A stretch of DNA of 43,786 nucleotides, taken from contig CAMUJB010000007.1 in NCBI GenBank assembly GCA_947089095.1, forward strand, positions 1-43,786, given 5' to 3'. The stretch comes from an uncultured Clostridia bacterium. GTDB lineage: Bacteria; Bacillota; Clostridia; Lachnospirales; Lachnospiraceae. The notes under the pieces were generated by a model, which did no database searches, was not told where the DNA came from, and worked only from the letters and a program-made list of their open reading frames with translations. A program made the position numbers and the translations under genes. This document shows, in pieces, positions 2,860-40,583 of the stretch. Each line of letters begins with the position of its first letter. Position 1 is the stretch's first letter.

Positions 2860-5800
2860 TTAATTAAAATAACATTTTTTAATTTCACTGGTTGAAATTT
2901 CTTCTAATCCCTGAGCAACTACATACTCTATCATATCAGGCTCTACCGTCCGAATAAATAATAGTGCATCTTCCTTAACATCAATATGAATCTCTTTATA
3001 AAGCACATTTTCAATTGGCATCTGTTCCATCTTAGAATCTGCTATAGGATTGTTGGTATAATAGATACGAACCACTTCTCTTGTAGCCCCTTGGAACGGA
3101 ACCCACTTTTTATACTCAATTTCAGCCGGTGAAAACTTACAGTCAAAATAATGTCTGTGATCTCTTCCTAAATAATAGTGGAAACGGGACTGCTGCAATG
3201 CATCGGTTTCATAATTTTTTTCAATTTTAATTGAACTTCCCGGACGGCTCTTTAACAGTCCATATGCTACTCCTGTTTTTGCATTTGGAACATATTCTTC
3301 TGTATTTTCACTCTCTCCCGTCAGCGGATCAATCAATTCAAAATATGCATTTCCTATTTCATCTGCCATTCTCTTAGATTTGCTGTAATATTCTTCAATC
3401 TTCTTTTGGAACAATTCTTTTACAAATATAGATTTACTGGAATTTCCTGCTAAAAAGATATAAATCTTATTCTCTTCTTTTTTTGTTTTCTCTTTAGATA
3501 AAAACATTTTAATTAAGCATTGGAAGAAACTATCAATTCCTTTTTGAATCCGTTTTTTAATTAATTCTACTAAATCCTGACTGGAAAATTCTAAAATACA
3601 CTGCGGCACAGGTTCTCCATTCATATTGTATAGAGAAACAACAATTCCTTCTTTATCAACTTCATTTTGTGCAGATTCATTGTCTAATTGGTATTTCTTT
3701 CTCCAACCCTGCTCCTGATGCCATAACGGACGCAACTCTTCTTTTAAAATCGACATATTTCTTCTTGCAATCTGAGAATTGATTAATAATGTCTCACTTC
3801 CTGCAAAACTATTCTCTCCAACTGGCAAAGTAAAGGTAATCTTCTTCTCCCGAAATACCTCTAAGTTTTTCTGATATACCTGATAAGCCAGTAATTCCAA
3901 TATATTTTCGCCGCCCAGTGTAACATCCGAATCTGCCCCAAAACATTCTAACACATAGTCATAGGCTTCTCTTTCGTACTCTTCTTCTGTTGCACCTCTG
4001 CAGATTCCAAAATCAAAGTCAGTTGTTCCTCCTCCAAAATCAAAAATTCCATACATAAACTGTTCTGTCTCATCCTTTGGCTCTAGATGACTTTGTTCCA
4101 ACGCTGTTACTGCATATGCTGCCGGCTCGCTGATTCCTAATTTTACCTGGAACCGTTCCATACATTCGGGATCACTCAGTATACTAGAAGGCAGAGATTT
4201 TTTAATTCCTTCATAAAAACTATTGGCTATAAAATCTCTTACATCTTTTGAATATCCAACCGGAAATGTCATTAGATAATTTAAGTAAATACCGTTCCGC
4301 ATATTGTTAATATATAACCCAATATAGTAAGCATACAATTCAATCGGATTGACAATTCCCTCTGTCATCTCAATATGCTCCCCTAAGTAATATTCTTCTT
4401 TTTGCTTATCCTTAATCAGTACACTTCCTTTTTCCCGATTTGCCCACTGTTTTAATTCATTAAAATAGGCATAAAAATCATCCGGCTTACAATTTCGAAA
4501 ATCTTCATAGGCATCATAAGAAACAAAAATATCATTGCAGGAAGTATGCGGTCTGCCAGCTTCTTTTTGATAATCTTCCATAAATTTTTTTACATTTGTA
4601 AATTCAATAATAGTTGGATTTTCGAAATCTTCTTCTTTTACTTCATCACTTAAATTTCCTGTTCCAATTCGAATCGGCACAATCCGGTTCGTAGCATCCT
4701 GACGAACAACGACTGTACTTTTCGTTCCAAAATCAATGCCAACTACACCATTTTTAATATCTAATTTCGGATCTCTTGCAATTAAATTCTCATAACGGAT
4801 TGTCTCACTTTCTGAAAAATTATTCTCTTTTCTGTCTTCCGTCCATTCTAAAGTTTCGGTACCCGATTCTTCACTCTCTTTTCTTGCTTCAAATAATTCC
4901 CAATGTCCTCTGATAATATCAAATAAAATATCTTTATCATATGGTTCTAAACGGCATCTATTTTTATCACAATCTAATAATGTCTGTATTTTTTCCATTT
5001 CTTCGTCTACTTCCCCTTCTCCTTGTATCGCATCTGTTTCTTTTATTTTTTCAATTTCTTCTATATTTTCATTTTCGGCTTTTTCGGTTTCTTTTCGCTC
5101 TTCTGTTTCTTCTGTCTTTTTATTTTCCCTACTTATTATTTTTGTCTCTTCTGCTTTTTCCGTTTTTACCTTCTCTATTTTTTGAATATTTTCTGGTTGC
5201 TGCTGTTCTGCTGCCTTTTCTGGAATTGATTTTAACTGCTTTTGTTGCTCATTAGAACTTTGGTCATTAGAACTTCTTTGCATCTCCTTCTGTTCTGGTA
5301 TTTTATTTTGTAATTCCAACTCCTGCTGATTTTTTAAGTTTTTTGATTCTGCTTTAGAAATTTCTAATTCTATAGATATTTCTGGTTCCGACATCTTAGA
5401 AATTTCAGACATTTCTGATTTATTAACAGATAATAATATCTCTGATTCTTCTAAATTCTCTTGAATTTCTGGCTCTAATACTTCTAATTCTATAGAAATT
5501 GGTTCTTCCTCTACCTCTTCTGCAGCTTCTGATTCTATAGAAATCGGCTCTTCTACTATCTCTTCTGCTTCAAAAGAGATTGGTTCTTCCTCCACCTCTT
5601 CTGCTGCTTCTGATTCTATAGAAATTGGCTCTTCTATTATCTCTTCTGCTTCAAAAGAAATCGGTTCTTCCTCTATCTCTTCTACAGCTTCTGGTTCTAT
5701 AGAAATTGGCTTTTCTACTATCTCTTCTGCTTCAAAAGAAATCGGTTCTTCCTCCACCTCTTCTGCTGCTTCTGATTCTATAGAAATCGGCTCTTCTATT

Positions 5801-7215
5801 ATCTCTTCTGCTTCAAAAGAAATCGGTTCTTCCTCTACCTCTTCTGCTGCTTCTAATTCTATAGAAATCGGCTCTTCTACTATCTCTTCTGCTTCAAAAG
5901 AGATTGGTTCTTCCTCCACCTCTTCTGCTGCTTCTGATTCTATAGAAATCGGCTCTTCTATTATCTCTTCTGCTTCAAAAGAAATTGGTTCTTCCTCTAT
6001 CTCTTCTGCAACTTCTGATTCTATAGAAATCGGCTCTTCTATTATCTCTTCTGCTTCAAAAGAAATTGGTTCTTCCTCTATCTCTTCTGCAACTTCTGAT
6101 TCTATAGAAATCGGCTCTTCTATTATCTCTTCTGCTTCAAAAGAAATTGGTTCTTCCTCTACCTCTTCTGCAATTTCTGGTTCTATAGAAATTGGCTCTT
6201 CCTCTATCTCTTCTGCAGCTTCTGGTTCTATAGAAATCGGTTCTTCCTCTACCTCTTCTGCAACTTCTGATTCTATAGAAATTGGTTCTTCCTCTATCTC
6301 TTCTGCAACTTCTGATTCTATAGAAATTGGCTCTTCCTCTATCTCTTCTGCTGCTTCTGGTTCTATAGAAATCGGTTTTTCCTCTACCTCTTCTGCTGCT
6401 TCTGATTCTATAGAAATCGGCTCTTCTACTATCTCTTCTGCAGGTGCTTGATATAATGAAGATAATTTCGATGTTCTAACTGTTTCTTCCTTCATTAATT
6501 GTTCCGTCTCTTCTAGAACAAGTTCTTTCTTATCCTCCTTTTCCACTATTTCATCCATTTTATTTCTTTGTAAAATAAAATCTTCAAAATCAATATTATG
6601 AAAATTATTACTTAAAAATTGCATCATTTTCCAACTGTCTTTTGAGGTATACAATGCAGATGGCGTTAGACCCATCTTTGCCCAAAGATAGATATCATAA
6701 TTCCAGGATTCTATATCTTTTCTTTTATATTTTTCTTCTACACGATAGATCTGCAAAATTGTTCCCTCTTCATTCTTCTGAAGACGGCGTATTTTTCTAC
6801 GTTCCTCATCATAAACCATGCCATTTTTTAAAAAAATCTTTTTCTTTCGGCATCTTTCTCCAAGTCCGGCAGCTCCAAATGTCTTTGGCATATTAGAAAT
6901 AGGCAGATAAGGAATAATCTGTTCTGCTTCCTCTTCTTTTAAATAATCCCAGACAATCCGCCCAGAATTTATCAAAATCGGACTTCTTTCCGGTCTTTTG
7001 TCTATCCGATAACTATTCTCTAGATACTTTTGTTCCATCGGAATAAAAATGTCTGTAGCCCTATGCTGATACCAGGTTCCTTCCAAACTGACTAATCGAA
7101 TAAATCCATTTACCCAATTACTTGGCGATTCAAAGATCGTGCGAATGTTGGCTTCCATATGGCAGCATTTTTCCCATATCTCTTTTTTCTCCAAGATACT
7201 CCATTTTTTCTCCAT
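2860..7215 (-). CDS. Giant 1451-aa multidomain protein: unknown N-terminal domain, acidic tandem-repeat linker, K/E/Q-rich low-complexity segment, Hsp70/actin-fold ATPase domain, and an unknown C-terminal domain
   Basis: Three Hsp70 NBD motifs are recognisable: VVGIDFGTKSTVV (phosphate-1, compare DnaK GIDLGTTNS), FDFGGGTTDFDFGI (phosphate-2, compare DLGGGTFD), and IFLAGNSSKSIFVKELF (adenosine motif, compare LVGGSTRIP). SD gaggtag precedes the ATG, and the stop TAG of the upstream gene lies inside this SD. Confidence 0.75.
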   Translation of the reverse strand: MEKKWSILEKKEIWEKCCHMEANIRTIFESPSNWVNGFIRLVSLEGTWYQHRATDIFIPMEQKYLENSYRIDKRPERSPILINSGRIVWDYLKEEEAEQIIPYLPISNMPKTFGAAGLGERCRKKKIFLKNGMVYDEERRKIRRLQKNEEGTILQIYRVEEKYKRKDIESWNYDIYLWAKMGLTPSALYTSKDSWKMMQFLSNNFHNIDFEDFILQRNKMDEIVEKEDKKELVLEETEQLMKEETVRTSKLSSLYQAPAEEIVEEPISIESEAAEEVEEKPISIEPEAAEEIEEEPISIESEVAEEIEEEPISIESEVAEEVEEEPISIEPEAAEEIEEEPISIEPEIAEEVEEEPISFEAEEIIEEPISIESEVAEEIEEEPISFEAEEIIEEPISIESEVAEEIEEEPISFEAEEIIEEPISIESEAAEEVEEEPISFEAEEIVEEPISIELEAAEEVEEEPISFEAEEIIEEPISIESEAAEEVEEEPISFEAEEIVEKPISIEPEAVEEIEEEPISFEAEEIIEEPISIESEAAEEVEEEPISFEAEEIVEEPISIESEAAEEVEEEPISIELEVLEPEIQENLEESEILLSVNKSEMSEISKMSEPEISIELEISKAESKNLKNQQELELQNKIPEQKEMQRSSNDQSSNEQQKQLKSIPEKAAEQQQPENIQKIEKVKTEKAEETKIISRENKKTEETEERKETEKAENENIEEIEKIKETDAIQGEGEVDEEMEKIQTLLDCDKNRCRLEPYDKDILFDIIRGHWELFEARKESEESGTETLEWTEDRKENNFSESETIRYENLIARDPKLDIKNGVVGIDFGTKSTVVVRQDATNRIVPIRIGTGNLSDEVKEEDFENPTIIEFTNVKKFMEDYQKEAGRPHTSCNDIFVSYDAYEDFRNCKPDDFYAYFNELKQWANREKGSVLIKDKQKEEYYLGEHIEMTEGIVNPIELYAYYIGLYINNMRNGIYLNYLMTFPVGYSKDVRDFIANSFYEGIKKSLPSSILSDPECMERFQVKLGISEPAAYAVTALEQSHLEPKDETEQFMYGIFDFGGGTTDFDFGICRGATEEEYEREAYDYVLECFGADSDVTLGGENILELLAYQVYQKNLEVFREKKITFTLPVGENSFAGSETLLINSQIARRNMSILKEELRPLWHQEQGWRKKYQLDNESAQNEVDKEGIVVSLYNMNGEPVPQCILEFSSQDLVELIKKRIQKGIDSFFQCLIKMFLSKEKTKKEENKIYIFLAGNSSKSIFVKELFQKKIEEYYSKSKRMADEIGNAYFELIDPLTGESENTEEYVPNAKTGVAYGLLKSRPGSSIKIEKNYETDALQQSRFHYYLGRDHRHYFDCKFSPAEIEYKKWVPFQGATREVVRIYYTNNPIADSKMEQMPIENVLYKEIHIDVKEDALLFIRTVEPDMIEYVVAQGLEEISTSEIKKCYFN
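5470..6450 (-). repeat. Near-perfect 84-nt (45 + 39 nt) tandem repeats inside the giant ORF, encoding EEPISIESE(A/V)AEE(V/I)EE and EEPISFEAEEI(I/V)E units about 20 times
   Basis: The nucleotide repeats ctcttctgc(t/a)gcttctgattctatagaaat(c/t)ggctcttc are almost identical copy to copy. The protein segment is extremely acidic and disordered-looking. Confidence 0.85.
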
Positions 7216-7220
7216 TTTTT

Positions 7221-8006
7221 CTACCTCACAATCACAATCGGCTTTATCACATCATCTTGTATGCTATATCCATTTAAAAGGACTTCCTGCACCACCCCAT
7301 TTACAATACTCTCCGAAGTTTTGATATATTGCCTCGAATCAAACTCATTACCAATCAGTACCTCTATAATCTCATAACGTTCTTTTCTTATATTGGTAAT
7401 ATTATAAACATTGATACATAAATCAAAGAAATTTGCCAATACTCGAATATTTTCCGTTTTTCTATCTGAATTCATAATTTCATCTTTAATAAAATTCCAT
7501 AATTGCTTAATTCCATTTTTATCTTTTCCTAAAGCAATAAAAGATTTAATATCCCATGAACCACATAAATTTTTTAAATAAGACTTTTGGCTTTTCTCCA
7601 ATTTCGAAATCCCCTGCCAAATCTCACTAATCTCCTCTAATGGTTCAAACTCCTTTTTCTGTTCCTGAAGCTGTTGATACAATTCTTCCTTCGAATGTTG
7701 AATCTCTCTCTTTTCCTTTTCCAAAACCACATTTTCTTTTTCTAATGCAGCATTTTCCTTTTCCAAGACAGCCTTTTCTTTTTCCAATGTCCGATAGTTT
7801 TCATGTAATCTTTCACACTCCAGATGTGCCTCTTCCAACTGATGATAAAGCAGATCCTTTTCTTTTTCCAATGCTTCTATCCTACGTTGAAATTCCCTCT
7901 CCTGTTCCTGATCTTTTTTTACAATTTTCTTAATATCCTCCTGAACCTCCCCATCTTTTAACAACTCACGCAAAATACGTTTTACACTAATTTGTATCTC
8001 ATCCAT
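7221..8006 (-). CDS. Coiled-coil protein (261 aa) with a C-terminal globular domain; first gene of the giant-ATPase operon
   Basis: Residues 30-130 are heptad-like and E/K/L-rich (LEKEKAVLEKENAALEKENVVLEKEKREI). The stop codon lies 5 nt from the next ATG, consistent with translational coupling. Confidence 0.5.
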   Translation of the reverse strand: MDEIQISVKRILRELLKDGEVQEDIKKIVKKDQEQEREFQRRIEALEKEKDLLYHQLEEAHLECERLHENYRTLEKEKAVLEKENAALEKENVVLEKEKREIQHSKEELYQQLQEQKKEFEPLEEISEIWQGISKLEKSQKSYLKNLCGSWDIKSFIALGKDKNGIKQLWNFIKDEIMNSDRKTENIRVLANFFDLCINVYNITNIRKERYEIIEVLIGNEFDSRQYIKTSESIVNGVVQEVLLNGYSIQDDVIKPIVIVR

Positions 8007-9001: not shown

Positions 9002-10612
9002 TTACCTTTCGTTACTTACAGGTATTTCCTCTGTTTCCCCAACAGCCCGTTCTAACAGTTCTGTTATTTCTTCCTCCGTCATATAAGAAACACCTGTAAT
9101 CTCTCCTTCTGCATTTCGAATAATTTTAATGCTTGCCGTTCCTTTTGAATTGATATCAAGCATATAAAACGAACTGTCAGGACGCTGATCCTTAATAATG
9201 TTGATTAATTCACCCTGATAATAATAAGATTTCCCATTTTTTTCAATACCATAAGCTGCATACTCCTCAATAAGTGCGGTATCGTCCCAATCCCAGTCTT
9301 TATCGTCCCAGTCAAACCCCCAATCTTCATCATTCCAATCCCCATCGTCCCAATCAAACCCCCAATCTTCATCATTCCAATCCTTATCGTCCCAATCAAA
9401 CCCCCAATCTTTATTATTCCAATTCCCATCCTCCCAGCCAAAATTCCAATTTTTATTATTTCCATTCCAGCCAATATCCAAATTTTTATCAGAAACATAG
9501 CTATCCATTTCATGTCTTTTCTGTTCTGATATTAAAATTTCGCTTTTTTCAGCAGAATCGGAATGGTTTGCTGAAGCAGTTGGATAAACACCAACAAAAG
9601 CTGCTCCAAAGAGTAAACACAGTGTAGATATACCTGTAAAAATCCGAACCGTCTTTGTTTTTTTCTTAAAATTCATAATTGCACCTAACCTTTCTTTTAA
9701 TTGTTTCGCTCCCTCAGTCAAAGTTACCGATGTGAACGATCCTTTACGGAGATGATCGATCTTTAAAAATAAAAGCAAGACATCTCCATACTCACGTCTT
9801 ACGCTGTCATCAAGCATGGCTATAACTGCTTCATCACATGACAATTCACACGCTTTATTTACTTCTTTTTCAAGCAAATAAACAAACGGATTAAACCAAT
9901 GAATACAAATTACAAGCTGTATCAGCCATTTATAAAACATATCCCGCCGTTTGTAATGATTTAATTCATGCATAAAAATATAAGATAACTCTTTCTCCTT
10001 CCATTCTCTAACAGGCAAAATAATACTAGGACGAAAGAAACCAATCATAATGGGCGATGAAATCAAAGAATTACTATATAATTCTACTCTCGTTTTCATA
10101 CTCTGTTTTTCTTCCAAATCAGACAGCAAATTCAATATTTTTACATCTGATATCTCTGTATTGCCAACTTTCATATATTGAATAAAGCCTTGATAAATTG
10201 TCACTTTGCGGACAAAAAGAACTACTGCAAATACTGACCAAATAAAAAAGAGACACGCATATCTATCAAATAACTTCTGTTTAGCAGCATTATTTACAAT
10301 TATATTTTCATTTTCTAGTACCTGTGGTCGTATTGGTTCGTTGTTATCTGTATTTACTACAGCAGACAGCTTAGAACCTGCAGAATTCTCATTTGTTATA
10401 ACAACTGTACGAAACAGTTGAAACAAGCTTCCTACATTTATTGTATCAGGTGTAAAAGGAAGCAAAAACCGCAGCACAACAATGATCCAAATATAATACT
10501 GCCAACGCCTGCTGAACTTATTTTTATATAATGGTTTGAATCCTAAAATAAGCAATAGCAACAGTGTACCGGAAATAGACAGTGACAATACTATTTTCAT
10601 AAATTCATCCAT
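9002..10612 (-). CDS. BlaR1/MecR1-family M56 peptidase-type membrane sensor with a W/D-rich tandem-repeat region
   Basis: N-terminal TM helices, then the M56 zinc motif FMHELNHYKRRD (HExxH). Four repeats of DWGFDWDD(K/G)DWNDE follow. No BlaI-like repressor gene is adjacent. Confidence 0.75.
   Translation of the reverse strand: MDEFMKIVLSLSISGTLLLLLILGFKPLYKNKFSRRWQYYIWIIVVLRFLLPFTPDTINVGSLFQLFRTVVITNENSAGSKLSAVVNTDNNEPIRPQVLENENIIVNNAAKQKLFDRYACLFFIWSVFAVVLFVRKVTIYQGFIQYMKVGNTEISDVKILNLLSDLEEKQSMKTRVELYSNSLISSPIMIGFFRPSIILPVREWKEKELSYIFMHELNHYKRRDMFYKWLIQLVICIHWFNPFVYLLEKEVNKACELSCDEAVIAMLDDSVRREYGDVLLLFLKIDHLRKGSFTSVTLTEGAKQLKERLGAIMNFKKKTKTVRIFTGISTLCLLFGAAFVGVYPTASANHSDSAEKSEILISEQKRHEMDSYVSDKNLDIGWNGNNKNWNFGWEDGNWNNKDWGFDWDDKDWNDEDWGFDWDDGDWNDEDWGFDWDDKDWDWDDTALIEEYAAYGIEKNGKSYYYQGELINIIKDQRPDSSFYMLDINSKGTASIKIIRNAEGEITGVSYMTEEEITELLERAVGETEEIPVSNER
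9270..9480 (-). repeat. 42-nt coding tandem repeats (DWGFDWDDxDWNDE units) inside the BlaR1-like gene
   Basis: Repeated gtcccaatcaaaccccc(a)atcttcatcattccaatcc units can be read directly in the sequence. Confidence 0.65.
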
Positions 10613-21184: not shown

Positions 21185-21235
21185 CAAAAAGGGACAAAAC
21201 TTTTGCATATAATATGCCAAAAGTCTTGTCCCTTT
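21185..21235 (-). terminator. Long hairpin terminator downstream of the second MATE gene
   Basis: aaagggacaaaacttttgcatat-aat-atgccaaaagtcttgtcccttt (23-bp arms), followed on the minus strand by tttttgtgg. Confidence 0.5.
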
Positions 21236-26118: not shown

Positions 26119-26182
26119 GATATTTTGATATTTTGATATTTTAATGCTTTGATGCTTTAATACTTTAATACTTTGATGTTTT
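26119..26182. repeat. Octanucleotide microsatellite (RATRYTTT x 8) abutting the rnfG stop codon
   Basis: gatattttgatattttgatattttaatgctttgatgctttaatactttaatactttgatgtttt. A 9-nt tandem tcttctaat x2 precedes it at 26076-26100. Confidence 0.7.
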
Positions 26183-27752: not shown

Positions 27753-29075
27753 CTATTTCTTCTTACGATTTGCCATTACAGTGGCACGCATCTGTGCAAA
27801 TGCCTGCGTCAAGTTTCTTTTGGCAGGGCATACAAAGGTACAGCTTCCACATTCACAACATTCCATTCCATTTAACTTTTCAAACTGCTCCGCTTCTCCG
27901 TGCACTGCCACATCATAAAGCATCTGAGGCACGATATGCCCCGGGCAGACAGAAACACAGCGTCCGCAGCGGATGCAGGCACTTGGTTCCATAGCAGAAA
28001 CTTCATCCTTTGTCAAAGCCAGCAGTGCAGTAGAATTCTTTGTCACCGGCACATCCAGCCGAAACATTGCCTTCCCCATCATCGGACCGCCGTTAATAAT
28101 CTTTTCCGGCTCACAAGTCAGTCCTCCTGCTGCATCTAAAAGTTCCTGATAGCAGATTCCGGTCGGTACAATAAAATTCTGAGGGTCTTTTACTGCATTT
28201 CCTGTCACCGTAATAATTCTTCTCATTAAAGGAGTCGATTCACATACTGCCATCTGAATGGCTGCTGCCGTATCCACATTGCTGACGACACAGCCTGCAT
28301 CAGCCGGAAGCATAGAAGAATTAATCTTACGCCCGGTTACCGCATAAATTAAAAAACGCTCCCCACCTTGAGGATACTTTGTCTGCAGCGGACATACCTT
28401 AATTCTAGATTCCTGTGCTACCAATTTTTCGATCTTTGCAATCGCATCAGGCTTATTATTTTCAATCGCAATAATACCTTGTGCCCGTTCAAAAAGCTGC
28501 AGTTCTACTTTTAATCCTTCTATTACCCGCTCCGGCTGTTCTAAAAGCATCCGGTAATCCGAAGTAAGATAAGGTTCACATTCTGCTCCATTGATAATGA
28601 CAAAATCAATTTTATTGTCATCTTTTGGAGTAAGTTTTACATTAGTAGGAAACCCGGCACCGCCAAGTCCGACAATCCCAGCTTCTTTTACAATTCCTCG
28701 AATCTGTTCTTTTGAAAGTTTTCGATAATCCCGTTTTTCGCCTACTCCTGGTGCCTTTGTATATTGTTCATCATTTTCTATTACAATACAAAGTGCCGTA
28801 TTTCCATTTGCCAAAACCCGATTTTCAATTTTCTTTACCTTACCGGATACCGAAGCGACTACCGGTGCCGATATAAATCCCCCTGCTTCAGCAATCTTCT
28901 GCCCTGCCTGCACCAAATCCCCCACTGCTACATTAGGAACAGCAGGTGCACCGATATGCTGCGATACCGGATAAACTAATTCTTTTCCTGGCTTCAATTC
29001 CCGCATGGGTTTATCTTTCGATAACTCTTTTCCCTCTGCCGGATGAATTCCGCCCTTAAATGTTGCTAATTCCAT
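27753..29075 (-). CDS. rnfC: Rnf complex subunit C (NADH-binding, 2x 4Fe-4S)
   Basis: GAGFPTNVKL motif and two ferredoxin-type clusters, CIRCGRCVSVCP and CCECGSCTFVCP. Confidence 0.9.
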   Translation of the reverse strand: MELATFKGGIHPAEGKELSKDKPMRELKPGKELVYPVSQHIGAPAVPNVAVGDLVQAGQKIAEAGGFISAPVVASVSGKVKKIENRVLANGNTALCIVIENDEQYTKAPGVGEKRDYRKLSKEQIRGIVKEAGIVGLGGAGFPTNVKLTPKDDNKIDFVIINGAECEPYLTSDYRMLLEQPERVIEGLKVELQLFERAQGIIAIENNKPDAIAKIEKLVAQESRIKVCPLQTKYPQGGERFLIYAVTGRKINSSMLPADAGCVVSNVDTAAAIQMAVCESTPLMRRIITVTGNAVKDPQNFIVPTGICYQELLDAAGGLTCEPEKIINGGPMMGKAMFRLDVPVTKNSTALLALTKDEVSAMEPSACIRCGRCVSVCPGHIVPQMLYDVAVHGEAEQFEKLNGMECCECGSCTFVCPAKRNLTQAFAQMRATVMANRKKK

Positions 29076-29388
29076 GAACGTCCTCTCTTTCCATTGATAT
29101 ACTGTACTTTATCTAACTATAATCCAAAATAAAAATTAATGCAAGTCATAAGTTGACATCTTTTGATAAAAGCAAATAAAATAATCCCTTTTTTTCTTGA
29201 AAATATAGAAAAAAACACCAATAAATCCCAAGAAAATAAAATTTAACAGGATTTATAAGTGTTTAAAACTACTAAAATTTTTATAGAATATCTGCCAAAA
29301 AAGGAAAAATCTACAAATCCTATTTGGTTAAATTTACTGTCTATTTTATATACTTATTCCTATTGTATTTATAGCTATCCCGTACGCC

Positions 29389-29522
29389 TGTATCGAAGGA
29401 GGTTTCTTTGCTGGGGCCGTTTGCACTAAGGCTTCCTCGCAGCGGACACATAAGGCACGAAAATACCGTGCCTAAGTGCCGGCGGGAAGCAATACCCCTG
29501 CAAAGAAACCTCCTTCGATACA
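29389..29522. repeat. Palindromic structured element D1 (134 nt) with a 22-bp perfect closing stem and internal sub-hairpins
   Basis: gtatcgaaggaggtttctttgc ... gcaaagaaacctccttcgatac. Internal hairpin ggcacg-aaaatac-cgtgcc. D2, 380 nt away, is its inverted copy. Confidence 0.6.
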
Positions 29523-29611
29523 AGCTGTCTGTTCCTTCCTATTCATTTTGCACCATTTCTGCTGTATAAAATTTATCCATATTTTCAACTAAACGATTCG
29601 CCTTAATATTC

Positions 29612-29662
29612 TTTTCTAATTTAAAACGTTTTTTTTATTTTCTAATTTAAAACGTTTTTTTA
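29612..29662. repeat. Tandem duplication of a 25-nt AT-rich unit containing the palindrome AAAACGTTTT, between D1 and D2
   Basis: ttttctaatttaaaacgttttttt appears twice in tandem. Confidence 0.6.
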
Positions 29663-29768
29663 ATATCAAATCAATAGCATAAGCATATCTCTACTCTATA
29701 TCTATTCACCGTTTATTAAGAATACAAAATCAAAACAGGATTTATCTGCCAACCGGTCGGTATATACA

Positions 29769-29909
29769 GTAGGTATGGAAAGGGAATTCTCTGCAGGGGT
29801 ATTGCTTTCCGCCGGCACTTAGGTGCTGTCTTTTAGCACCTTATGTGTCCGCTGCGAAAAAGCCTTAGTGCAAACGGCCCCAGCAGGGAATTTCCCTTTC
29901 CATACCTGC
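29769..29909. repeat. Palindromic structured element D2, an inverted diverged copy of D1 with compensatory stem substitutions
   Basis: aggtatggaaagggaattc ... gaatttccctttccatacct closing stem. The internal hairpin ggtgct-gtctttt-agcacc differs from the D1 hairpin ggcacg/cgtgcc at 2 positions on both strands, so pairing is preserved. It lies 50 nt downstream of the pnp stop. Confidence 0.6.
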
Positions 29910-29958
29910 GTCCGCCCCGAAACTCCCTTCCTATACAACCATCTTGCTTTTCTTTTCT

Positions 29959-32043
29959 CTACCGAACATCCTTTATACTAAAACTAATTCGCCCCATCTT
30001 ATCCTTCCCAAGGCAAACTACCTTTACAATATCTCCCAAAGTAAGCACATCTTCCACATGTTCAATCCGTTCCTTAGAAATCTTAGAAATATGCACCATT
30101 CCTTCTTTTCCAGGGGCAAACTCTAAAAAGGCTCCGAATTCCTTAATGCTGATTACTTTCCCGGTATAATACTTTCCTTCTTCAAAATCCGAAGCAATCA
30201 TCTGGATATATTCTACTGCTTTTTCCATCTTCGCCCGATCCGTTCCGCAGACAGAAACAGCTCCCTCATCTGTGATATCAATTTTTACATCGGTTTCTGT
30301 AATAATCGCATTGATGGTTTTTCCCTTTGGTCCGACTACATCTCCTATTTTAGCCGGATCAATCATAACCTGTATAATTTTCGGTGCATATATCCCTACC
30401 TCTTTGCGGGGTTCTGCAATCGCAGGTTTCATACAATGCTCCATAATATATAACCTTGCTTCTCGGCAGCGTGCAATCGCTCCCTCTACAATCTCTCTTG
30501 TCAGACCATGTATTTTAATGTCCATTTGGATTGCGGTTATTCCAGCATCTGTACCAGTTACTTTAAAGTCCATATCGCCGAAAAAGTCTTCCAGCCCCTG
30601 AATATCTGTTAATAAAAGATATTCTTCATCTGTTTCGCCTGTTACCAATCCGCAGGAAATGCCGGCTACCATTTTCTTGATTGGCACGCCTGCTGCCATA
30701 AGGGACATACAAGAAGCACAGGTGGATGCCATAGAAGTAGAACCATTGGATTCAAATGTCTCCGAAACAGTACGAATCGCATATGGGAATTCTTCTTCGG
30801 AAGGAAGTACTGGTACTAAAGCCCGTTCAGCAAGTGCACCATGTCCGATTTCTCTTCGTCCCGGACCTCTGGAGACTTTTGTCTCTCCTACAGAATAGGA
30901 CGGGAAATTGTAGTGATGCATATAGCGTTTGGAGGTTTCATTGACATCTAATCCGTCTAGTTTCTGTGCTTCAGAAAGTGGTGCTAAAGTACATACATTG
31001 CAGATCTGGGTCTGTCCTCTGGTAAACATAGCAGAACCATGTACTCTTGGAATAATATCTATTTCTGCAGCAAGCGGACGAATCTGGGTGATTTCTCTGC
31101 CGTCTGGACGTTTTTGATCTTTTAAAATCATCTTTCGAACGGTCTTTTTTTCATATTGATAGACTGCTTCATCTATCAGAGGAAGCCATTCTTCTTTTTC
31201 TGCAAATGTTTCTAACAGGTTGTCTTTTAACAAGCGGATTCGCTCTTCTCTGACCTGTTTTTGTTCTGCAAACATGACTTTTTCCATTTCTTCCGGGGGT
31301 ACAATTTCTTTAATGGCAGTGAATAATTCTTCCGGTATGGCACAACTGGTATACTCATGTTTTGCTTTTCCACACTCTGCTACAATGCTGTCAATAAATG
31401 CAATTACTTGCTGATTGACTGCATGGGCAGTATAAATAGCCTCTATCATCTGTGCTTCTGGTACTTCATTGGCTCCTGCCTCTATCATAATGACTTTTTC
31501 TCTGGTGGAAGCAACCGTTAATTTTAAATCGGAAATGGTGTTTTGTTCTGCATTTGGATTGAGCACAAATTTCCCGTCAATTAATCCAACCTGTGTGGTT
31601 GCACATGGACCGTCAAACGGAATATCGGAAATCGCTACTGCAATAGCAGAACCTAACATAGCCGTTAATTCCGGGCTGCACTCTGGATCAACCGACATAA
31701 CCATATTGTTGATTGTTACATCATTTCTATAGTCTTTTGGAAATAATGGACGCATAGGACGGTCAATTACACGGGAGGTTAGAATTGCATTTTCGGATGC
31801 TTTTCCCTCTCTTCGATTAAAACCCCCTGGAATTTTTCCTACTGCATATAATTTTTCTTCATATTCTACACTAAGCGGGAAAAAATCAATTCCCTCTCTT
31901 GGTTTTTCGGATGCAGTTGCTGTAGATAATACTGTGGTATCTCCATAGTGCATAAATGCAGCACCATTCGCCTGAGCTGCTACACGTCCTATGTCTACCC
32001 GCAGCGTCCTTCCAGCTAATTCCATCTCAAAACTTTTATACAT
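29959..32043 (-). CDS. pnp: Polyribonucleotide nucleotidyltransferase (PNPase)
   Basis: Two RNase-PH domains, a KH domain and a C-terminal S1 domain (GKVISIKEFGAFLEF). Start taken at MYKSFEMEL, where GGAGG lies 5 nt upstream. The ORF track begins 4 codons earlier. Confidence 0.95.
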   Translation of the reverse strand: MYKSFEMELAGRTLRVDIGRVAAQANGAAFMHYGDTTVLSTATASEKPREGIDFFPLSVEYEEKLYAVGKIPGGFNRREGKASENAILTSRVIDRPMRPLFPKDYRNDVTINNMVMSVDPECSPELTAMLGSAIAVAISDIPFDGPCATTQVGLIDGKFVLNPNAEQNTISDLKLTVASTREKVIMIEAGANEVPEAQMIEAIYTAHAVNQQVIAFIDSIVAECGKAKHEYTSCAIPEELFTAIKEIVPPEEMEKVMFAEQKQVREERIRLLKDNLLETFAEKEEWLPLIDEAVYQYEKKTVRKMILKDQKRPDGREITQIRPLAAEIDIIPRVHGSAMFTRGQTQICNVCTLAPLSEAQKLDGLDVNETSKRYMHHYNFPSYSVGETKVSRGPGRREIGHGALAERALVPVLPSEEEFPYAIRTVSETFESNGSTSMASTCASCMSLMAAGVPIKKMVAGISCGLVTGETDEEYLLLTDIQGLEDFFGDMDFKVTGTDAGITAIQMDIKIHGLTREIVEGAIARCREARLYIMEHCMKPAIAEPRKEVGIYAPKIIQVMIDPAKIGDVVGPKGKTINAIITETDVKIDITDEGAVSVCGTDRAKMEKAVEYIQMIASDFEEGKYYTGKVISIKEFGAFLEFAPGKEGMVHISKISKERIEHVEDVLTLGDIVKVVCLGKDKMGRISFSIKDVR

Positions 32044-32284
32044 CGTTTCCTCCATTCTCCGCTGTCTGCGGAATCTTATTTTCTTAATTTTCTAATCTGT
32101 CTGTCCCGCCGGAGAGTTCCGAAACTACTGAAAAATACAGAAAATAGGACTATTTCGTTATTTCTTATTAGATGTTTATTTGTTTATTTCTTTATTTCTT
32201 TTTTCTGTCCTTTTCAGTGGTCTCGGCTAACTTTTTTCCTTTGGGAGTCTTTTGTTTTTTCCTAATTTTCTTTTCCAATTTTCT

Positions 32285-39584: not shown

Positions 39585-39620
39585 TGCCAATATGAAAATG
39601 CAACATTTGTTAGTAAAATG
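39585..39620. repeat. Palindromic 15-6-15 site 1 (aaaatgcaacattt-gttagt-aaaatgttgcatttt); candidate recombinase core site or operator
   Basis: Perfect 15-bp arms around the 6-nt spacer gttagt. It lies between divergent csrA and the recombinase gene. It matches the inverse of site 2 (40383-40419) at 33 of 36 positions. Confidence 0.55.
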
Positions 39621-39664
39621 TTGCATTTTTAAGAAAGCAAAATTCAACGAACGGAGGATCTATC

Positions 39665-40255: not shown

Positions 40256-40271
40256 TCCAATCACAAAAAGA

Positions 40272-40307
40272 AATGCCGCTTATCGACAGAGGATAAGCGG
40301 CATTTCC
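40272..40307 (+). terminator. Rho-independent terminator of the recombinase gene
   Basis: gaaatgccgcttatcgacagaggataagcggcatttc followed by a T/A-rich run. Confidence 0.6.
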
Positions 40308-40382
40308 CTTGAAAAATAAAAAATTTAAAAAAATTCAAAAACGCTATAAAGTATTTTATAAAAACACCGATATAAGGAATAT

Positions 40383-40419
40383 AAAAATACAACATTTTAC
40401 TAACAAGTGTTGTATTTTT
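40383..40419. repeat. Palindromic site 2 (aaaaatacaacatttt-actaac-aagtgttgtattttt), an inverted copy of site 1
   Basis: Its spacer actaac is the reverse complement of the site 1 spacer. The two sites bracket an approx. 760-bp segment that contains the recombinase gene. Confidence 0.55.
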
Positions 40420-40583
40420 ATTTTTTATAAAGTATCTTCCTTTTCTATTCTACTAAACAGCATAAACAAAAGCAAATATTTTTATACATATCTATCATAT
40501 CTTATAAAATTCAAGAAAATTTTTCATATTTTTCCTAAATTTTCTGTATTTTACAACACATTATACGAATCAAATATTCTATC

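Follow-up and report, generated by a model that had tools for sequence, protein, structure and literature searches.

The described repeats closest to the elements reported here are the REP sequences and BIMEs of Enterobacteria, the latter with alternating Y and Z units, and the RAYT-associated REPINs of Pseudomonas. BOX of Streptococcus pneumoniae, Correia/NEMIS of Neisseria, ERIC of Enterobacteria and bcr1 of the Bacillus cereus group are repeats that resemble miniature inverted-repeat transposable elements (MITEs) and fold in transcripts; ERIC and Correia have orientation-dependent effects on mRNA processing and stability. The attC sites of integrons are imperfect palindromes of 57-141 nt which are recognised as folded single strands, structure being conserved over sequence. 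Here we analysed two long palindromes, D1 and D2, located between pnp and the rnf operon in a 43,786-nt contig (CAMUJB010000007.1) of an uncultured Clostridia bacterium of the Lachnospiraceae; this whole stretch is called the window below. We conclude with high confidence that D1 and D2 are a typical tail-to-tail doublet of an uncatalogued, widespread family of REP/BIME-like structured palindromic repeats. The two are independent members of this family, neighbours by chance, and the AT-rich DNA between them is ordinary intergenic sequence.

D1 and D2 as members of a dispersed family

D1 is a full family member on the plus strand (29376..29535), with the 5′ motif CCGTACGC, a hairpin at 29386-29525 and the 3′ sequence TGTCTGTTCC. 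The 26-nt left arm of its stem P1 (29386..29411), of which the outer ~18 nt are copy-specific, pairs with the right arm (29500..29525) with one C.A mismatch close to the base. Between the arms lies a conserved asymmetric core (29412..29499) made up of P2 (GGGG/CCCC), the 5′ internal loop CCGTTTGCACTAAG, P3, P4 and the apical hairpin GGCACG-AAAATAC-CGTGCC. D2 (29759..29919) is also a full member, on the minus strand and sense to pnp, with GGACGC at 29913-29908, a hairpin at 29909-29768 and the tail ACTGTATATACC. Its left arm (29883..29909) has 27 nt, one of them a bulged A, its core (29795..29882) carries the apical hairpin allele GGTGCT-AAAAGAC-AGCACC, and its right arm occupies 29768..29794. 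The predicted folds had energies of −83.7 kcal/mol for the plus strand of D1 (z = −12.3) and −70.5 kcal/mol for the minus strand of D2 (z = −8.3), and none of 200 shuffled sequences folded as well as D1 or D2.

An earlier reading, made from the letters of the window without database searches (the sequence-only reading), had described D1 and D2 as perfect-stem palindromes that are inverted copies of each other with compensatory differences. The two are long hairpins in mutually inverted orientation, and their inverted alignment is 82% identical over 132 nt. The compensatory differences were confirmed in the apical hairpin (GGCACG/CGTGCC in D1 vs GGTGCT/AGCACC in D2). The outer stem also differs in sequence between D1 and D2, each version being self-complementary, and helix P3 differs by one C-G to U-A swap and one U.G wobble. 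The stem of D2 is not perfect: a perfect segment of 16 bp (29771-29786/29892-29907) is followed by a 1-nt bulge and a C.A mismatch. The third copy of the arm that had been proposed at 29918-29937 is weak, as the arms of 7 of 42 other copies match this flank as well as the arm of D2 does; genuine copy-specific 5′ partial duplications exist at other loci (L030, L037, L046 and L049).

Uniqueness to this locus was among the conditions that would have refuted the sequence-only reading, and D1 and D2 are not unique. The core 20-mer GGCCGTTTGCACTAAGGCTT gave 58 exact matches in 46 genome loci, all but two of them from the mouse-gut catalogue Lachnospiraceae metagenome-assembled genome (MAG) MGBC128194; by blastn, 64 copies were counted. 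One locus of this MAG (L033) is orthologous to the window and 98.5% identical over 5.7 kb, so the window and MGBC128194 belong to the same species, called this genome below. Contigs of the MAG often end inside the core because the repeat breaks short-read assemblies. The core pattern GCGGRCACRTAAGN{16,19}CTAAGTGCC, checked on known loci, where the actual gap is 17 nt, was found in at least 120 metagenome stretches, mostly with human-gut labels, with 46 distinct loci among the matches listed. One carrier contig (L170) is from Mediterraneibacter, its GlyA being 100% identical to that of Ca. M. intestinavium. Covariance model R1, which was built from copies of this genome, recovered metagenome relatives at 56-123 bits. 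The family thus spans at least several Lachnospiraceae lineages.

No match to the element was found in plasmid, phage and viral-contig collections, and literature searches by sequence and by topic returned no description of the family. Against Rfam 15 the window gave no match at the gathering score, and at E≤10 only three chance-level matches, all outside D1 and D2; 13 diverse member loci gave tRNAs only. No tRNA or tmRNA was found in the D1-D2 region.

A variant was noticed in one human-gut species (L145:6256-6460 and related ERZ777011 contigs, such as L055, L067, L090, L094 and L101), in which the arms are conserved among copies. These members have an extra outer helix, TTGCGAAACTC/GAGTTTCGCAA, giving hairpins of ~200 nt. 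The hairpin lies in a gene-gene spacer and, in L145, ends ~50 nt before the next start codon.

Conserved centre, variable stem and their evolution

One unit is ~160 nt long and consists of a 5′ GGACG motif, the 26-bp stem P1, a strand-asymmetric core of ~88 nt and a CTGT tail. The copies of this genome align without gaps. They start with (C)CGGACGC and the 26-nt left arm, after which the 5′ half of the core contains, in order, TGGGG, the unpaired 5′ loop with the sequence given above for D1, GCTTCCTCGC, AGCGGACAC and ATA. The apical hairpin of 6-7 bp has a loop of the AAAAGAC type and is followed by AA, GTGCCGGCGGGAAGC, AATA and CCCC; 3′ of the core come the 26-nt right arm, GCTGTnTATTCC and a weakly conserved tail of ~30 nt. 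Among 45 copies of this genome, mean pairwise identity was 0.93 in the core, 0.84-0.85 in the inner 7 bp of the stem and 0.83-0.86 in the foot motifs, while it was 0.47-0.48 in the outer 18-19 bp of the stem, where 0.28 is expected from composition. Despite the variation of the outer arms the stem is almost perfectly paired in every copy, and P1 is 26 bp long in all but 3 of 46 copies.

In diverse members P1, P2, P3 and the 5′ loop are lineage-specific. Common to all of them are a centre of the form AGCGGACAC-RUA-AG[6-7 bp hairpin]CU-AA-GUGCCGRCG, a 5′ foot of the GGACG type and a CUG 3′ foot. This conserved centre comprises ~40 nt and has two bulges on the 5′ strand; one member (L098) carries an inserted extra hairpin. 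In the 5′ internal loop (window 29417-29426, GCCGTTTGCAC) two positions covary across species when inspected by eye, giving the forms CG-C-nnnn-G-CT and CG-T-nnnn-A-CT, which suggests a mini-helix of 2 bp or a tertiary contact. As for a pseudoknot, the apical loop showed no covariation with the 5′ internal loop by eye.

The claim that structure is kept while sequence drifts was upheld by massive covariation over about 180 related copies. RNAalifold on 46 copies of this genome gave 54 pairs, 32 of which have double-sided changes. Among 53 diverse members 92.5% of the cells are paired and 50 of the 54 pairs have double-sided changes; the covariation score was 0.787, compared with 0.18 for shuffled alignments and ≤0.117 when the partners were slid. 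The strands are not equivalent. Under R1, D1 scored 181.1 bits on the plus strand and 49 on the minus strand, and D2 scored 166.9 bits on the minus strand and 38.5 on the plus strand, so the sense strand lies 120-130 bits above the antisense strand. The inner helices (P2b-P4) contain 38 G.U or U.G cells and 6 A.C or C.A cells. The excess of G.U in the inner helices, together with the bit advantage of the sense strand, indicates that the functional strand folds as a single strand. In the outer stem P1 there are 45 G.U and 41 A.C cells.

The outer stem behaves differently in evolution. In orthologous copies of two species the arms differ by 19-23% and nearly all changes are compensated (in the right arm, five paired changes and one unpaired change). 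Between the same two species the divergence is 15-27% for neighbouring intergenic DNA and 9-10% for coding DNA, and in the core 1 of 88 positions is different. P1 thus changes at about the neutral rate with near-complete compensation, which argues against stepwise compensatory selection, and its pairing is probably kept at the DNA level by intramolecular template switching. Quasi-palindromes are known to undergo template-switch correction. A hairpin-templated DNA element, which the sequence-only reading had offered as an alternative to selection on RNA, therefore fits the outer stem, which drifts at a roughly neutral rate yet remains paired and tolerates G.U and A.C mismatches equally. Two other ideas about the arms were rejected. 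The arms are not hypermutable, because no arm differences were seen between strains diverged by 1.5% and in comparisons between species they diverge about as fast as intergenic DNA; nor is their variation transition-biased, as editing would make it (150 transitions and 172 transversions).

Between the window and L033, D1 (100%) and all four arms are identical. Eight differences cluster within 15 nt of the D2 apical hairpin (29824-29838), where the L033 ortholog reads GGCACG-AAAGTAC-CGTGCC. Both stem alleles are common in other copies, and gene conversion over a short tract best accounts for the switch.

Filled and absent loci were compared in four cases (L019/L018, L047/window and two sites of L174/L170). 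The loci lacking a full copy had a remnant of the 5′ foot with part of the left arm, the 5′ half, the tail only, or replaced sequence, and microhomology at the junction was seen in three of the four cases (GTTTTT, CTTTC and CCGG). In these sequences related genomes appear to show only losses, which fits an old family. In one sister species (L019) one doublet partner has been lost and the shared partner and the interior remain. In other strains the copy behind pnp has a different core subtype (L052 and L053). Three ideas about the origin of the copies were discarded. The core is not a young insert in older hairpins, as no coreless arm hairpins occur in 333 kb. The arms were not copied from target DNA, since the 'empty' sites are remnants of microhomology deletions and the arms share a loose consensus (0.48 vs 0.28 for random sequence). 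The data do not support doublet partners as recent inverted duplicates (apical hairpins only slightly more alike, 0.82 identical vs 0.76 for random pairs; permutation p = 0.10).

Two further features of the copies were observed. Many carry on their 5′ side a tandem or partial duplication of the 5′ foot and the first 10-20 nt of their own left arm. Such loci come from different species (L049, L032 ~4290-4360, L046, L030, L037 and L017, and in metagenomes for example L059 ~7680-7710). At L049:6040-6184 the unit CTCGGACGCATGAAGAAGACCGA, which is the 5′ foot and the start of the arm, is repeated five times in tandem directly after pnp. This stutter may arise from fork stalling or slippage at the entry of the palindrome. 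In six metagenome contigs (L056, L131, L141, L148, L158 and L173) copies are chimeric, with the left arm from one locus and the right arm from another; either dispersed cores have truly recombined among strains, or the contigs were wrongly joined in assembly at the ~90-nt repeat.

Gene context and possible function

All copies in this genome are intergenic. Copies are usually found 0-150 nt past a stop codon and in sense orientation. The 5′ side lies ≤150 nt from the stop codon of a gene on the same strand in 26 copies, and the 3′ side adjoins a gene end in 5 copies, three of which lie between convergent genes; the corresponding numbers for the wider family are 23 and 7. Upstream of the copies are ordinary genes of the chromosome, such as fmt, gerA, a PBP gene, ftsX, thrC, uxuA, a V-ATPase subunit gene and ABC transporter genes, and in Mediterraneibacter (relatives of M. 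glycyrrhizinilyticus or Ca. M. intestinavium) polC and glyA. Where genes converge (L017 and L045), each gene has its own sense copy, indicating that orientation follows the adjacent transcription unit and not the replication strand. No conserved protein family adjoining the copies was found.

At the present locus, pnp (polynucleotide phosphorylase; 29959..32055, minus strand) is a 698-aa open reading frame (ORF) whose homologues have RNase_PH, PNPase, KH and S1 domains. D2 follows the 3′ end of pnp, ~45-50 nt past its stop codon (29959-29961), and has the position and orientation of a pnp 3′-UTR element, as had been proposed. The sequence-only reading further suggested that the unit could be the pnp terminator or a target of RNase III or PNPase. 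D1 is the inverted partner of D2, and its 5′ end faces the conserved upstream region of rnfC, the first gene of the rnf operon (27753..29075, minus strand), the start of whose ORF is ~310 nt from the 5′ end of D1. The rnfC ortholog in L047 encodes RnfC_N and Complex1_51K domains, and the upstream regions of the window and L047 align. Two strong sigma-70-like promoter matches were noted on the plus strand at 29094-29123 and 29153-29182, each at 11 of 12 positions, in a region conserved in L047. Both point towards D1 and away from rnfC. If active, they would give a plus-strand transcript of ~200-260 nt ending in D1 in the sense orientation.

The reading that we favour, at somewhat better than even chances, is that the folded 3′ part of a transcript serves as a 3′-end barrier, terminator or insulator whose centre and feet are contacted by a factor. 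The sense strand would fold as a single strand, most likely within the 3′ part of the transcript of the upstream gene, and the long hairpin would act there as the barrier, terminator or insulator. The invariant core and the foot motifs would be contact sites for a putative protein, whereas the variable 16-18 bp of P1 would serve as a spacer of constant length without contact to the factor. Complementarity of P1 would be maintained by template switching within the palindrome, and the cores would be kept uniform by selection and gene conversion between copies. The family would have spread long ago by a trans-acting mechanism and would now mostly be lost by slippage deletions. More tentatively, the ~40-nt centre, the fixed 26-bp spacer helix and the GGACG/CUG foot may form the docking platform of a dedicated protein at Lachnospiraceae transcript 3′ ends, or else the platform of a new hairpin-recognising mobilisation system that does not read terminal repeats. 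A dedicated 3′-end protein would imply 3′-end formation or insulation that is genome-wide, orientation-specific and protein-dependent, with tail-to-tail doublets as two-way transcription insulators.

Several observations weigh against a role in transcripts. G.U and A.C cells are about equally frequent in P1, as expected for a DNA palindrome and not for an RNA helix, and the alignment behind the wobble counts was fitted to the model and so favours structure. A role in RNA is suggested by orientation and wobble statistics only, and the gene positions rely on crude ORF calls (the longest ORFs of ≥100 aa). In a sizeable minority of copies, including D1 and nine copies in divergent intergenic regions, the 5′ end faces a gene start. 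A terminator scan found no canonical terminator (hairpin and U-tract) for the elements and none after pnp, and this simple scan does not separate genes with an element (3 of 24) from genes without (17 of 114). The four locus comparisons gave no clean empty site or target duplication that would document how copies spread. Elsewhere in the window, canonical bidirectional terminator-like hairpins with an A-tract and a T-tract were seen at 21188-21235, 39593-39631, 40269-40307 and 40381-40421; the genome thus uses ordinary intrinsic terminators, though not after pnp.

The most serious competitor, which we consider possible but clearly less probable, is that the elements are selfish non-autonomous DNA of the REPIN/PATE type. 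A RAYT-like Y1/HUH enzyme acting in trans would read the folded sense single-stranded DNA through the hairpin base and the core, and transcripts would be affected, if at all, only incidentally. Hairpins of single-stranded DNA also accept G.T wobbles, which is a point in favour of such an element. High copy number, extragenic sites, inverted doublets and conserved single-stranded motifs at the hairpin foot agree with it, and so does P1, which resembles a DNA palindrome in having a symmetric mismatch spectrum and fully compensated changes at a neutral rate. One published account places group 1 RAYTs in Clostridia (PMC5581495). In a tblastn search of 1.37 Mb, covering part of each genome with approximate IS200/IS608/RAYT queries, no Y1 transposase adjoined any copy; the sole Y1 match was an IS200/IS605 tnpA, 5.8 kb from an element and unlinked to it. 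Elements of this kind are usually recognised at their ends, and it is these arms that are least conserved here. Relatives differed by deletions in all cases, and neither recent gains nor empty sites or target duplications were observed. Arm divergence of ~52% implies old copies, yet the core is intact in every copy, and copies on either strand are oriented with the adjacent gene and not with one replication strand.

A free-standing family of structured non-coding RNA genes with their own promoters, with a protein-sequestering or catalytic product, would explain the strong covariation, the conserved asymmetric loops and the extra hairpin in L098 without a cis-acting 3′-UTR element. We regard it as improbable. 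There is no conserved promoter upstream of the copies, whose 5′ flank is locus-specific and often begins 0-30 nt past a stop codon, and no Rfam family matches. Some 60 near-identical cores per genome would be atypical for a trans-acting RNA.

The arrangement of the copies bears on two further explanations. Of neighbouring copies within 1.5 kb of each other, 25 pairs are arranged tail-to-tail, none head-to-head and 3 in tandem. Two of the tandem pairs enclose a whole gene, and a fragment is involved in the third. Many copies are solo. In several species the doublet partners carry different core subtypes, GGACAC and GG-TAC. The interiors were compared for 13 doublets of this genome; they range from 105 to 1080 nt, show no homology to one another and in some cases hold whole host genes or a small Cys/Gly-rich ORF. 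Judged from their translations alone, genes inside doublets resemble a metallophosphoesterase and a GNAT acetyltransferase, and one doublet interior (L024:5330-5785) consists in part of about six tandem repeats of ~45 nt derived from the 3′ tail motif TTTCAGCCGAAACGTTGTTTTGCAG. It is very improbable that the doublets are site-specific recombination or inversion modules (invertons) with the cores as crossover sites. Inverted repeats do flank short, AT-rich, promoter-like DNA, and the six chimeric loci would fit, but these may be misjoins across the ~90-nt repeat. Crossover in the core would leave non-complementary arms, whereas both copies are self-complementary in each of the 25 doublets. The window and L033 do not differ in the orientation of the interior, solo copies are common, and no recombinase gene is linked to the elements. 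The sequence-only reading had taken D1, the AT-rich DNA and D2 as one MITE with terminal inverted repeats of ~135 nt, which, for all the inverted arrangement with its 82% identity and the recurrence of tail-to-tail doublets, can hardly be right, as the unrelated interiors refute it, many copies are solo, the arms of partners are no more alike than those of random copies (0.495 vs 0.483 identity), the supposed terminal repeats are less conserved in their outer arms than in the core, and the interior persists in the sister species where one partner was deleted.

The spacer of the present doublet (29536..29758) is AT-rich and locus-specific, and lies outside the repeat family. The tandem duplication reported in it is real (26 nt at 29609-29660), but it is specific to this locus and is not a part of the family. 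Each unit of the duplication contains once the palindrome AAAACGTTTT (29623-29632 and 29649-29658), upstream of the rnf operon. The palindrome is present in L033 but locus-specific, and could be a candidate binding site for a regulator. Other repeats were noted in the window. An 8-nt tandem repeat, GATACTTT, occurs in 7.4 copies in an intergenic gap inside the rnf operon (26119-26182), with one 8-nt indel between the window and L033. A 1451-aa ORF on the minus strand (2860-7215) contains about 11 tandem repeats of 81 nt (88% matches; 5494-6442), which yield a highly repetitive protein segment, and a second coding repeat with a 42-nt unit (9302-9436) lies in the ORF at 9002-10612.

Significance and comparison with known systems

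The non-coding genome of Lachnospiraceae, which rank among the most abundant bacteria of the gut, has hardly been explored. The repeat family supplies dozens of near-identical, strongly structured modules per genome behind housekeeping genes (pnp, polC, glyA, fmt, thrC and V-ATPase genes), and its absence from Rfam 15 means that copies are mis-annotated or missed. It may drive rearrangements between copies. It also provides a large natural set of compensatory changes in which the outer stem looks DNA-templated and the inner core seems to be under selection for its single-stranded fold; a single element thus allows these two sources of 'covariation' to be told apart. A new layer of 3′-end control in gut Firmicutes would come to light if a dedicated factor binds the core.

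Like REP/BIME sequences and REPINs, the elements are extragenic palindromes of high copy number (~60 in the part of one genome that was sampled) clustered at the 3′ ends of genes, with the hairpin kept by paired changes and a conserved motif at its foot. As in BIMEs, they form inverted doublets, often of two subtypes; cores of the GGACAC and GGTAC types are paired here in several species, which recalls the Y/Z alternation. The unit of ~140-160 nt is, however, four to five times larger than REP (20-40 nt) and is a full hairpin alone. REPINs combine conserved arms with a variable spacer, whereas here the apex is conserved and the stem is variable. The doublets have longer spacers than BIMEs, 64-1046 nt of DNA that is unrelated from one doublet to another. 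REPINs are associated with RAYTs, while no RAYT gene was found here in a search covering part of each genome.

With BOX, Correia/NEMIS, ERIC and bcr1 the family shares its nature as an intergenic repeat of 100-200 nt that forms a long hairpin when co-transcribed. Those repeats have conserved terminal inverted repeats and mostly target-site duplications, in contrast to the present family, in which the arms differ from copy to copy and neither a target duplication nor a clean empty site was seen in the four locus comparisons. Intrinsic terminators are likewise stable, GC-containing hairpins in the sense orientation a few tens of nucleotides past the stop codon. The present elements have instead a 26-bp stem with a structured apex of 88 nt and no regular U-tract: the consensus after the stem is GCUGUnUAUUCC, in GC-rich relatives CUGGGCUG, and neither the tail GCTGTnTATTCC of this genome nor the non-U-rich tails of the relatives provide one. 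Finally, integron attC sites are alike in single-strand folding, in their position at gene 3′ ends and in fixed orientation. They have conserved outer R″/R′ boxes and a variable centre, and form one co-oriented array next to intI; in the family described here it is the centre that is conserved, and the copies are dispersed on more than 40 contigs, in both orientations, after unrelated housekeeping genes and in inverted doublets.

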